From a virus: 63,314 nt of DNA. Below the pieces are notes generated by a model. It saw only the letters and a program-made list of their open reading frames with translations. It had not been told where the DNA came from and did no database searches. Both the position numbers and the translations under genes were made by a program. Positions 108 through 63,314 of the stretch are shown here, in pieces. The stretch lies in IMG/VR virus record IMGVR_UViG_3300029536_000008, positions 1 through 63,314 of that record, one strand, 5' to 3'. Position 1 is the first letter of the stretch, and every line of letters starts with the position of its first letter.

Positions 108-194
108 TACGGCAATGCGATTTTACCACAGGTTATATATGAAATTTTTAGAGCAATAAATATTGTAGAAAATGGAAGAATGGAAAACTATTGA
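3..194 (+). CDS. 3' end of the C5-methyltransferase frame-A ORF that starts at 61788 and crosses the circular junction
   Basis: Same phase as 61788 (genome length 63207 is divisible by 3). Reads ...FSKWRQESIKAYGNAILPQVIYEIFRAI..., a motif X-like GNAI/VP element, with stop TGA at 192-194. Confidence 0.6.
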   Translation, partial: KNFPTQSPVCSRDDGISTRLDGIAFSKWRQESIKAYGNAILPQVIYEIFRAINIVENGRMENY

Positions 195-702
195 AGGTTA
201 TGATGGAAGATATGAAGTCAGTAGTCATGGACGTATTAGAAGCGTCAGTATGTTTTTAGGGAATCATATATATCATGGAAAGGTTTTATCTCCCACAATA
301 GCGACAAATGGATATTTAAAAGTTAATTTAATATTAAGAGGGAAAAAGAAGACTTGTTTGGTGCATAGGCTTGTCGCGAAAGCGTTTATAGAAAATAGAA
401 AAAATCTACCACAAGTAAACCATAAAGATGAAATAAAAACCAATAATAATGTTGACAATCTCGAATGGTGTAGCGAATCGTATAATTGTAACTACGGTAA
501 AAGGAATTTTTTATTGATAGAGAAAACAAGGAAGCCTGTATTGCAATTATCGGTTGATGGGAATTTGATAAACAGATTTGAAGTTTTAAATGACGCATCC
601 CGAATCACTGGGATAAATGCCGCACATATTTGTGATGTATGTAAAGGGAAAAGGAAATTAGCTGGTGGATATGTATGGAAATACGCCACAAGTAATGTAT
701 GA
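172..702 (+). CDS. HNH homing endonuclease (NUMOD4 / HNH_3 / IENR1-type modules)
   Basis: 176 aa. Contains WKTIEGYDGRYEVSSHGRIRS (NUMOD4-like), LVHRLVAKAF...VNHKDEIKTNNNVDNLEW (HNH core) and GINAAHICDVCKGKRKLAGGYVWKY (IENR1-like DNA-binding tail). Confidence 0.85.
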   Translation: MEEWKTIEGYDGRYEVSSHGRIRSVSMFLGNHIYHGKVLSPTIATNGYLKVNLILRGKKKTCLVHRLVAKAFIENRKNLPQVNHKDEIKTNNNVDNLEWCSESYNCNYGKRNFLLIEKTRKPVLQLSVDGNLINRFEVLNDASRITGINAAHICDVCKGKRKLAGGYVWKYATSNV

Positions 703-61787: not shown

Positions 61788-63314
61788 ATGGAAATGAAGA
61801 AAAGCGAATTGACACACGGCTCTCTGTTCAGCGGCATCGGTGGCCCGGAAATAGCTGCCGAGATAATGGGCTGGAAAAACGTGTTCCATTGTGAAATAAA
61901 CCCGTTCGGGAGAAAAATACTTGATTATTGGTTTCCAAACAGCAAAAGTTATGAAGACATCACGAAAACAGATTTTACAGAGTGGCGGGGAAAAATCAAT
62001 GTCCTCACCGGAGGGTTCCCCTGCCAGCCTTTTTCTTGTGCCGGACAGAGAAAGGGAGCGGAAGATGACCGCTACCTCTGGCCGGAAATGCTACGAGCGA
62101 TACGGGAGATTCAGCCCGATTGGGTTGTTGGTGAAAACGTTGCTGGAATCCTCTCGATGGTACAACCCGGCAGTGAAACTGCGTTGGGACGTGAAAAATC
62201 TCTGTTCGGAGAGGTTGACCGAAAAAGAATATTGCATCGGCAGGAATACGTCGTCGAAACAGTGTGTAACGACCTTGAACGTGAAGGATATTCCGTCCAA
62301 CCGGTTGTTATTCCGGCTTGTGCCGTCGGAGCGCCGCACAGAAGGGACCGTGTCTTCTTTATTGCGAGAAGAATACAAGACAATAACAACAACATCGGGA
62401 GTGGATATACTTGTAGATTCGGAAGATTTTCCGTTTCTGAATCAATGGAAATGGAAGATAAACAATTCAGGGTATGTTTACAGAACAATCAGAGCGAAAG
62501 AAGATGGAAAGAAATGGAAGACTATCTTGATGCACAGATTGATTTGCTGTCCGAAGGAAAACGAGGAAGTGGACCATATCAACAGATGCAAAACGGACAA
62601 CAGAAAGCAAAATCTTCGGATATTAGCTCATTGGGAAAATCTTCACAATCGGAAGAAAGGTTCAGGAGTAAGGAAACCGAAGGGACGGAACAAATGGCAT
62701 GCGATAATCTATGTGAACAGGAAAAGGATTCACCTCGGATTTTTCGATACAAAAGAGGAGGCGATGAATGCAAGGTTGAATGCGGAGAGAAAATTGTTGC
62801 CCACCGTGCAGACGCAGGGGTTGAAGGTATGCAACGAAAATGGGAAGACAACATTCTATCCGGTAGAACTGCTCCCGACACCGACAGCCATAGATGGAGG
62901 AACGGGAAGAATCAACAAGTCACTATCGCCGAACGCAAAGGAACGGCCAACATTGGCACTTTCCGCGAAGATGGGACTTCTTCCTACTCCCAATGCTCGG
63001 GAAGCGGACAAATATACAAAGAAGTACAATCCGAACAGCCAAATGGGCACAGCTTTGACAGCAATGGCGGTAAACGGAATGTTGCCTACTCCAAGAGCCA
63101 ACAAAGTGAACGATATAAATCTGAACAACCTACATCTGGCACAACGGAACAAAGGGAACTTGGAAGAAGCTGTTGCGAAAATAATTCAAAATACGCCATT
63201 AGGGAATGGAAAAACTTCCCTACTCAATCCCCTGTTTGTAGCCGAGATGATGGGATTTCCACCAGATTGGACGGTATTGCCTTTTCAAAGTGGCGGCAGG
63301 AATCGATAAAGGCA
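61788..63314 (+). CDS. DNA (cytosine-5)-methyltransferase, frame-A ORF (runs off the window end and continues at 3-194)
   Basis: Absent from the ORF track because it has no stop inside the window. Manual translation: MEMKKSELTHGSLFSGIGG (motif I), LTGGFPCQPFS (IV), VVGENVAG (VI), APHRRDRVFFIA (VIII), all before 62367. Afterwards the sequence is hydrophilic and low-information until KAYGNAILPQV after the junction. Confidence 0.7.
   Translation, partial: MEMKKSELTHGSLFSGIGGPEIAAEIMGWKNVFHCEINPFGRKILDYWFPNSKSYEDITKTDFTEWRGKINVLTGGFPCQPFSCAGQRKGAEDDRYLWPEMLRAIREIQPDWVVGENVAGILSMVQPGSETALGREKSLFGEVDRKRILHRQEYVVETVCNDLEREGYSVQPVVIPACAVGAPHRRDRVFFIARRIQDNNNNIGSGYTCRFGRFSVSESMEMEDKQFRVCLQNNQSERRWKEMEDYLDAQIDLLSEGKRGSGPYQQMQNGQQKAKSSDISSLGKSSQSEERFRSKETEGTEQMACDNLCEQEKDSPRIFRYKRGGDECKVECGEKIVAHRADAGVEGMQRKWEDNILSGRTAPDTDSHRWRNGKNQQVTIAERKGTANIGTFREDGTSSYSQCSGSGQIYKEVQSEQPNGHSFDSNGGKRNVAYSKSQQSERYKSEQPTSGTTEQRELGRSCCENNSKYAIREWKNFPTQSPVCSRDDGISTRLDGIAFSKWRQESIKA
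61921..63309 (+). CDS. Frame-B ORF (+1 relative to frame A): HNH-AP2 module fused to MTase target-recognition / motif IX-like region
   Basis: ORF track 462 aa. VDSEDFPFLNQWKW...LMHRLI...VDHINRCKTDNRKQNLR (HNH), KWHAIIYVNRKRIHLGFFDTKEEAMNA (AP2), LLPTPTAIDGG / LLPTPNAREA / MLPTPRANK, NPLFVAEMMGFPPDWT. Confidence 0.65.
   Translation: MIIGFQTAKVMKTSRKQILQSGGEKSMSSPEGSPASLFLVPDRERERKMTATSGRKCYERYGRFSPIGLLVKTLLESSRWYNPAVKLRWDVKNLCSERLTEKEYCIGRNTSSKQCVTTLNVKDIPSNRLLFRLVPSERRTEGTVSSLLREEYKTITTTSGVDILVDSEDFPFLNQWKWKINNSGYVYRTIRAKEDGKKWKTILMHRLICCPKENEEVDHINRCKTDNRKQNLRILAHWENLHNRKKGSGVRKPKGRNKWHAIIYVNRKRIHLGFFDTKEEAMNARLNAERKLLPTVQTQGLKVCNENGKTTFYPVELLPTPTAIDGGTGRINKSLSPNAKERPTLALSAKMGLLPTPNAREADKYTKKYNPNSQMGTALTAMAVNGMLPTPRANKVNDINLNNLHLAQRNKGNLEEAVAKIIQNTPLGNGKTSLLNPLFVAEMMGFPPDWTVLPFQSGGRNR
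62401..62796 (+). mobile_element. HNH-AP2 homing-endonuclease-like module embedded in the MTase locus (frame B)
   Basis: Possible GTG start at 62401. HNH_3 plus AP2 domain signatures as above. Confidence 0.55.
63208..63314. repeat. Second copy of the 107-bp terminal overlap (= 1-107)
   Basis: Same 107 nt as the window start. Confidence 0.95.

Follow-up and report, generated by a model that had tools for sequence, protein, structure and literature searches.

A candidate two-subunit phage cytosine-5 DNA methyltransferase specified by nested reading frames

Cytosine-5 DNA methyltransferases (C5-MTases) assembled from two chains have been described before. In M.EcoHK31I, the gene for the beta subunit is nested in another frame of the alpha gene and both chains are required, with alpha carrying motifs I-VIII, motif X and the target recognition domain (TRD), and the small beta subunit contributing motif IX only (PMC2836561, PMC3404938). 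M.AquI is split in the variable region, its small subunit comprising the distal variable region together with motifs IX and X (PMC3404938), and fragments of M.HhaI, M.BspRI, M.BsuRI and M.SssI complement one another in trans (PMC2836561, PMC3404938). Here, we analyze a C5-MTase locus in the IMG/VR virus record IMGVR_UViG_3300029536_000008 (positions 1 to 63,314; this whole stretch of 63,314 nucleotides is referred to as the window), in which an outer gene, alpha, encloses a second gene, beta, in the +1 frame. Judged from its sequence, the locus probably encodes a two-subunit C5-MTase from two nested genes.

A first-pass annotation of the window had named M.AquI as the precedent. This holds insofar as M.AquI is a two-chain C5-MTase and the present locus likewise appears, from its genes, to encode a two-part enzyme. 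M.AquI is not nested, however, whereas here the outer alpha frame contains motif X and encloses all of beta, and the closer precedent is M.EcoHK31I with its beta gene inside alpha (PMC2836561, PMC3404938). In the literature searched, we found no account of a nested gene beyond EcoHK31I and AquI. The nested geometry is thus already known from EcoHK31I, and annotation of an inner open reading frame (ORF) exists in Paenibacillus phage records; the searched literature gave no account of the family, of a recognition domain encoded by the inner gene, of how broadly the layout occurs or of its selection pattern.

The window is a circular assembly whose positions 1-107 repeat 63208-63314 exactly (a 107-bp terminal repeat), so that the methyltransferase ORF and beta stop region occur in it twice. 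Its unique length of 63207 is a multiple of 3, and reading frames therefore continue over the circular junction. Frame A (coordinate mod 3 = 0) has no stop from 61785 to the TGA at 192-194, which leaves 537 codons from the ATG at 61788, and frame B (+1; mod 3 = 1) has none from 61900 to the TAA at 63307-63309, a run of 469 codons that is open from alpha codon 38 on. The coordinates thus bear out the first-pass description of two frames open over the same ~1.4 kb, while its count of roughly twenty stops in the third frame was too low, the actual number being 35 (61892-63248).

The C5-MTase hallmark motifs I (FxGxG), IV (PCQ), VI (ENV), VIII (RxR) and X (GNAxxP) all lie within frame A, with motif X (KAYGNAILPQV) downstream of the beta stop. 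Between motifs VIII and X, frame A is without a recognition domain and motif IX; the modules and a IX-like motif sit in frame B, which reads an HNH-AP2 module, LLPTP repeats and LNPLFVAEMMGFPPDWTVLPF, and the motifs are therefore split between the frames as originally proposed. Frame A matches PF00145 (E=1e-37, above the gathering score), and alpha also matches phrog_363; freed of the HNH-AP2 insert described below, it spans both ends of TIGR00675 (dcm; residues 12-380, 115 bits vs a cutoff of 100.65). In relatives, alpha is annotated as one coding sequence (CDS) in frame A. Beta matches phrog_1008 'DNA methyltransferase' (E=3e-26) and consists of an N-terminal domain, the HNH-AP2 insert, LLPTP recognition modules in tandem and the IX-like motif. 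The alpha linker is 82-294 aa long and S/R/G/E/Q-rich, with a hydropathy of -1.48 and 20% hydrophobic residues, a composition that probably corresponds to a disordered spacer.

The double openness is not what codon usage would produce by accident. Synonymous shuffling of the B-coded stretch 62365-63306 (314 codons) gave an expectation of 18.5 frame-A stops, with 0 observed, and none of 3000 shuffles had fewer than 10, so that the openness of frame A was never reproduced; by region, 9.6 stops were expected in the HNH-AP2 insert and 8.4 in the TRD, again with 0 observed. The converse claim, that frame B is open over the A-coded catalytic half, stands as a count (0 stops), but it is only mildly unusual (2.9 expected, P about 0.02) and weak in a single sequence. 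The first-pass annotation had also noted by hand that frame B avoids T-ending codons ahead of codons starting with AA, AG or GA, and counting upholds this rule: such a codon follows 0/62 T-ending codons in frame B, compared with 106/251 other codons (Fisher P = 2e-13) and with 29% of T-ending codons in the other long ORFs of the genome. The choice of Asn codon conforms to the same rule: all 15 AAT codons precede safe codons, whereas AAC stands ahead of dangerous codons in 13 cases and of safe ones in 4. Among the 65 ORFs of at least 150 codons in the genome, the longest alternate-frame open run is the 469 codons found here, the next best being 102. The synonymous shuffles, the third-frame control and the genome-wide ORF control rule out chance or base composition as the cause; together with conservation in hundreds of independent assemblies, shuffling and the genome-wide control strongly support the proposal that selection keeps both frames open. 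The double-open layout is real and far beyond chance.

Conservation was followed in phages and in chromosomes. In the Bacteroides phages BS-TP4 (96% identity) and BKO1-TP3 (about 81%), both annotated with a single methyltransferase CDS in frame A, no stop interrupts the +1 frame over 379 and 329 codons, respectively, against 23-28 stops in the third frame. From ~240 IMG/VR loci retrieved for the viral comparison, both frames are long in 154/166 non-truncated distinct genes, in which the frame-A stop falls 40-120 nt past the frame-B stop, frame C has 10-34 stops, and the nested layout is kept across many combinations of recognition modules. In a chromosomal set limited to one genome per species, the nested layout, with a frame A free of stops over the B-coded stretch, was seen in 59 of the 75 Bacteroidota loci that could be evaluated; the Microscilla locus L323 is the sole single-frame case among the chromosomal loci. 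Recurrence of the layout in cultured phages and hundreds of assemblies also excludes the two 1-nt indel errors that had been considered as a way of placing all motifs in one frame.

Outside Bacteroidota phages, gp51 of Paenibacillus phage Rani, labelled 'g50 Internal gene', lies in the +1 frame within the methyltransferase gp50 (0 outer-frame stops vs 8.6 expected), and Lacticaseibacillus phage R23.9 has the same nested layout as Rani. In total, 3826 beta homologues were found, and a profile of the frame-B protein matched 9439 representative clusters among 1.84 billion proteins. Separately, the Bacteroides and Parabacteroides chromosomal copies L290, L292, L294, L299-L302, L291, L268 and L277 carry 1-2 frame-A stops in the recognition region, vs 3-10 expected, with beta intact; they are prophage genes that decayed recently, or else a variant with alpha truncated after motif VIII.

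We then determined how selection is distributed over the two frames, using a codon-respecting alignment of 152 distinct genes in which each difference was assigned, on the OLGenie principle, to a synonymous or nonsynonymous class for A and for B (in dNN, dSN and dNS, the first letter refers to A and the second to B). This set was pre-filtered for two long frames, so the absence of stops within it is partly circular, and the unbiased figures are the viral and chromosomal counts given above. Over alpha codons 1-100, dNN/dSN in A is 0.15-0.20 and the B ratio is at its baseline of ~0.6, the pattern of coding in A only. Over codons 101-186, A-synonymous divergence drops from about 0.63 (0.6-0.8) to 0.25-0.33, with minima of 0.10-0.16 that coincide with the frame-B motifs PIGLLVKTLL, SERLTEKEY and IPSNRLLFRL. 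Within codons 101-140, dNS (0.32) exceeds dSN (0.25), the reverse of the normal order; A-synonymous change is suppressed 2.5-fold, and dNN/dNS in B is 0.40 (0.27-0.56). In all, ~90 codons of frame B that lie over the catalytic domain of A are under selection.

Farther downstream, the two frames change roles. Purifying selection acts on B in the recognition region (dNN/dNS 0.19-0.60, about 0.47), whereas A is neutral there (dNN/dSN 0.6-1.7, about 1.0 overall). Between motifs VIII and X, the amino acids of frame A are unconstrained, yet the frame is stop-free. At the 3' end, from KWRQES to IKAYGNA, the ratios are 0.06 for A and 1.33 for B, compared with 0.7-0.8 and 0.2 just upstream; selection thus switches from B to A at KWRQES, a few codons ahead of the beta stop.

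The first ATG of frame B, at 61951, is present in 152/152 distinct genes. It exists by virtue of the Tyr codon of alpha YEDITK, which is fixed as TAT, whereas the other Tyr codons of the region are divided 353 TAT : 313 TAC, and all frame-B stops in the family lie upstream of this ATG. In Rani, a Shine-Dalgarno (SD)-like GGGAGG stands 12 nt upstream of the inner ATG. An AlphaFold model built with 81 diverse sequences predicts beta residues 31-130, which lie over alpha motifs IV-VIII, as two helices and a long hairpin with a predicted local distance difference test score (pLDDT) of 79-92, and the recognition modules with a pLDDT of 41-82; an earlier model (49 sequences, pLDDT 48.7) was uninformative. 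A sequence search of the PDB returned no match.

In the reading we favor, alpha would be translated in frame A from the ATG at 61788 to the TGA at 192 and would supply the catalytic large-domain elements, motifs I-VIII and X, joined by a long, hydrophilic and probably disordered linker that is the frame-A reading of the recognition region. Beta would be translated in the +1 frame from the internal ATG at 61951 to the TAA at 63307, and would consist of an N-terminal domain overprinted on alpha motifs VI-VIII, tandem LLPTPxAxD modules and LNPLFVxEMMGFPxxW, which stands before motif X in single-chain relatives. By analogy with M.EcoHK31I and with artificial complementation of C5-MTase fragments, beta would dock on alpha in trans and rebuild the complete enzyme. 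Frame A would then have to be stop-free across the recognition region for ribosomes to reach motif X, which would produce stop avoidance without amino-acid constraint. Two polypeptides account for the stop avoidance in A, the conserved ATG, the constraint on B upstream of motif VIII and the positions of the boundaries, and from the two ORFs, their conservation, the selection pattern and the conserved start codon, we infer that beta is initiated on its own, that it assembles with alpha and that the enzyme is active. Among the mechanisms offered in the first-pass annotation, two-subunit dual coding is accordingly the one that the ATG in all 152 genes, the open but neutral frame A and the constraint on the beta N-terminal part favor, and programmed frameshifting is disfavored, having no conserved slippery site.

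Several points weigh against this interpretation. The making of either product and the association of alpha with beta are themselves read from sequence, and the first ~35 beta codons are without constraint beyond baseline. The abutting, nearly non-overlapping selection switch at the 3' end is equally expected from a single frameshifted polypeptide. Since Bacteroidota, to our knowledge, are without strong SD signals, the start at 61951 is not checkable from sequence. A Foldseek search of the beta model against PDB and BFVD gave no significant related fold, the recognition part of this model being only moderately confident. The cross-phylum similarity of the beta N-terminal part is no greater than hitch-hiking on alpha conservation gives, and it was dropped as independent proof of coding (identity of 30-33% in the +1 frame vs 24-31% in the +2 frame, with alpha at ~50%). 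Finally, 1-2 frame-A stops occur in about a dozen of the chromosomal copies.

The alternative that survives best, although we regard it as unlikely, is a single canonical polypeptide produced by two programmed frameshifts, +1 after motif VIII and -1 before the B stop, with the shadow frames incidental. Colinearity with the single-frame mycobacteriophage methylase described below speaks for it, as do the sharp change of selected frame at the two boundaries, the 3' one having hardly any functional overlap, and a CCCTTTG/A heptamer that lies in frame B inside GFPLMW in 78/152 genes. However, this heptamer is missing from the window's clade, and no slippery sequence is conserved at either boundary. 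A frameshifted polypeptide would need neither a stop-free frame A over 82-294 neutral codons, nor a frame-B ATG 138 codons before the supposed switch, nor constraint on B within the catalytic domain; the zero frame stays open for ~340 more codons with no early stop, and the recoding review searched contains no such case. CCCTTTG and CCCTTTA are canonical -1 slippery heptamers, located about 15 codons before the beta stop, where the window reads GGATTTCCACCAGATTGG (at about 63256-63273); as they are not conserved across clades, we did not regard them as a frameshift signal.

Mixed decoding, in which full alpha is made and some ribosomes shift +1 in the catalytic region or after motif VIII to give an alpha(N)-beta fusion, appears improbable. 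It would suit the openness of frame B from alpha codon 38 and the unconstrained first ~35 codons of beta, and natural 1-nt deletion variants form such fusions in several assemblies. These fusions nevertheless come from DNA deletions at differing positions, with no common site, and mixed decoding sits poorly with an ATG that is kept in every gene through synonymous codon choice in alpha, and with the SD-like GGGAGG before the inner start in Rani.

The fusions themselves, in which an alpha N-terminus is joined to beta, were seen in proteins P0003, P0010, P0011, P0015, P0017, P0037 and P0049 (five of the seven are 414 aa long). The single-base deletions responsible lie in the catalytic half, at positions that differ among near-identical relatives; in L003 (GCA_024181985.1 contig BRDB01000436.1, 2501-3745), the only locus checked at the DNA level, one G is deleted relative to BS-TP4, outside a homopolymer. 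We had considered the fusion proteins as a sign of frameshift-tolerant gene calling or ribosomal frameshifting, and dropped this explanation as the DNA has real 1-nt deletions at differing positions, the mark of mutants. These deletions may be assembly errors, neutral knock-outs or a selected loss of methylation.

That each part has one functional frame, in a decaying or mis-sequenced methyltransferase whose openness stems from indel errors or composition, is very improbable and effectively refuted: the relatives L003, L037 and L064 are indeed frameshift mutants and some chromosomal copies carry the frame-A stops mentioned above, but the same frames stay open across hundreds of independent assemblies, as they do in the cultured phages BS-TP4, BKO1-TP3, Rani and R23.9, shuffles never reproduce the openness, the third frame abounds in stops, and within the genome this behavior is unique to this gene.

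Taking the relatives into account, we lean, with some reserve, towards a widespread C5-MTase family of phages and prophages (Bacteroidota and Firmicutes phages) organized as a gene within a gene, with the recognition subunit (265-476 codons) inside the catalytic gene in the +1 frame. About 100 codons would specify two folded domains, the rest of the outer frame would be a stop-free translated spacer, and modules as well as a homing-endonuclease insertion would be exchanged with both frames kept open. If this is true, few known pairs of nested same-strand coding sequences in prokaryotic viruses would be as long, and production of both alpha and beta would make the locus a natural case of large-scale same-strand dual coding. 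Functionally, the arrangement would then make clear sense, since its division coincides exactly with the boundary between the large and small domains of C5-MTases. It would further mean that gene callers consistently pick up just one gene of the pair: they give alpha or beta, or chimeras created by 1-nt deletions, which leaves thousands of entries as 'hypothetical protein' or incomplete methyltransferase, and predictions of methylation specificity for gut phages would miss the subunit with the recognition domain. The family would offer a tractable system for two-frame co-evolution, module shuffling under double-frame constraint and endonuclease insertion that spares both frames, and experiments are possible because BS-TP4 and BKO1-TP3 are cultured Bacteroides phages.

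The HNH-AP2 module had initially been taken as part of the frame-B protein; instead, it is a 435-bp insertion found in only some relatives. It sits between alpha motif VIII (in beta, ...SSLL) and beta PTVQTQGLK, the first recognition core of beta. The insert is clean relative to BS-TP4, and it is found in about 30/80 close loci and not in the rest, a presence/absence polymorphism at a precise site. Its profile scores are below the gathering score for both HNH_3 (19.0 bits, cutoff 24.8) and AP2 (18.7 bits, cutoff 33.3). The absence of frame-A stops from the insert fits the requirement that both frames stay translatable; its diversity, at only 12 variable columns, is too low for selection inference. 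The coordinates of all features are collected in Table 1.

Table 1. Coordinates of the nested methyltransferase genes and their parts in the window.
Feature	Position	Strand	Remarks
Alpha ORF (frame A)	61788..63314, then window 108-194, TGA 192-194	+	537 codons; motifs I-VIII, shadow-frame linker, motif X
Alpha catalytic half	61827..62366	+	Motifs I, IV, VI, VIII; frame A under purifying selection
Motif I FSGIGG	61827-61844	+	Frame A
Motif IV GFPCQPFS	62013-62036	+	Frame A
Motif VI GENV	62130-62141	+	Frame A
Motif VIII PHRRDRVFFIA	62334-62366	+	Frame A
Alpha motif X region KWRQESIKAYGNAILPQV	63288..63314, on to window 108-134	+	Frame A; starts a few codons before the beta stop
Beta ORF	61951..63309	+	Frame B (+1), 452 codons + TAA, wholly inside alpha
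Dual-constrained stretch	62077..62349	+	Beta N-terminal domain (SGRKCYERYGRF...IGLLVKTLLESSRW...IPSNRLLFRLVPSERRTEGT) over alpha motifs VI-VIII
HNH-AP2 insertion	62366..62800	+	435 bp (145 codons), in frame in B, stop-free in A, absent from BS-TP4
Putative cut site in insert-free alleles, should the HNH-AP2 insert be an active endonuclease			Between TTTATTGC and CCACCGTG
Beta recognition region	62801..63285	+	Modules and IX-like motif; frame A is a hydrophilic linker
Recognition-module cores	62794, 62869, 62977, 63079	+	Frame B; one LLPTV, three LLPTP/MLPTP
IX-like motif LNPLFVAEMMGFPPDWTVLPF	63223-63285	+	Frame B

A second homing-endonuclease-like gene (window 172-702) follows right after alpha motif X, with matches to NUMOD4 (E=1e-14), HNH_3 and I-HmuI NUMOD-like. 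A copy of the methyltransferase 3' end lies on either side of it (87-171 and 674-724); the upstream copy is recoded and completes alpha (...PQVIYEIFRAINIVENG...), and in the downstream remnant 25 nt are identical to BS-TP4 (CCACAAGTAATGTATGAGATATTCC). From its sequence, this gene looks like an endonuclease cassette that carried its own replacement exon end.

The recognition region of beta is a mosaic of exchangeable modules led by LLPTP (for example, NAREADKY...NPNSQMG, TAIDGGTGRINKSLSPNAKERPT, MASDATTGAIIGKNDQF and RANKVNDINLNN) in loci L001-L241 and proteins P0001-P0120; the number of modules varies by phage, and every combination leaves both frames open. Downstream of the methyltransferase, BS-TP4 (L001, 4232-5104) and BKO1-TP3 (L002, 3999-4904) each have a PAPS-reductase-family gene, with an N6-adenine methyltransferase farther downstream in BKO1-TP3. 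These neighbors suggest a DNA-modification gene cluster.

Comparison with single-chain enzymes places the split within the canonical architecture. Alpha residues 11-192 align to residues 4-155, and beta residues 160-295 to residues 195-352, of the single-frame protein gp71 of Mycobacterium phage IrishSherpFalk. As far as colinearity goes, the first-pass statement that a canonical enzyme would require an A-to-B-to-A reading is right, with alpha and then beta mapping along gp71, and it follows that the nested pair corresponds to a canonical enzyme split at two small-domain hinges. The nested locus shares with gp71 and Microscilla L323 the order of motifs I-VIII, LLPTPxxxDG modules, LNPAFPEWMMGWPTGW and GNGVVPQQ; in gp71 and L323, however, all elements share one frame and one polypeptide. 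In addition, alpha has an insert of ~27 aa between motifs VI and VIII that is missing in gp71, and it is there that the N-terminal part of beta is most constrained. In the gp71 locus itself (L243, 1148-1681), the +1 frame is open for 177 codons across the catalytic half (2.8 stops expected, P about 0.02) and ends as an LLPTP-type module (SLLPTPETGMSPNGHGRRGG...) just ahead of the frame-0 LLPTP modules; possibly, this is a vestige of the nested layout or a variation on it.

The pairs in Rani (gp50/gp51) and R23.9 resemble the present one in an outer gene with motifs I-VIII, a low-complexity stretch and motif X, and in an inner +1 ORF with the shared motifs ...MT.TSG.K..., LFRLVPS, TPTASD modules and LNP.WVE.LMG.PIGWT. 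For the Paenibacillus pair, the only record is the annotation in GenBank; papers on Paenibacillus phage genomics list two C5-MTase genes and do not comment on nesting (PMC6070908, PMC5056774). Beta residues 20-296 match the inner ORF of a Paenibacillus larvae phage with 28-29% identity. The Paenibacillus and Lacticaseibacillus pairs differ from ours in their Firmicutes hosts, a shorter beta (234 aa) and other modules.

The C5-MTases of the Bacillus phages SPR, phi3T and rho11s are multispecific anti-restriction enzymes, single polypeptides with tandem recognition modules. The present family resembles them in having tandem recognition modules whose number and type vary by phage, and departs from them in using two reading frames. 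As in M.EcoHK31I, the second chain is specified wholly inside the first gene in another frame, with motifs I-VIII and X in the outer gene. Unlike in M.EcoHK31I, compared here by description, the recognition region and an N-terminal domain of ~100 aa reside in beta (about 300-450 aa), the overlap amounts to 265-476 codons, and in the alpha frame the recognition region reads as a neutral spacer.

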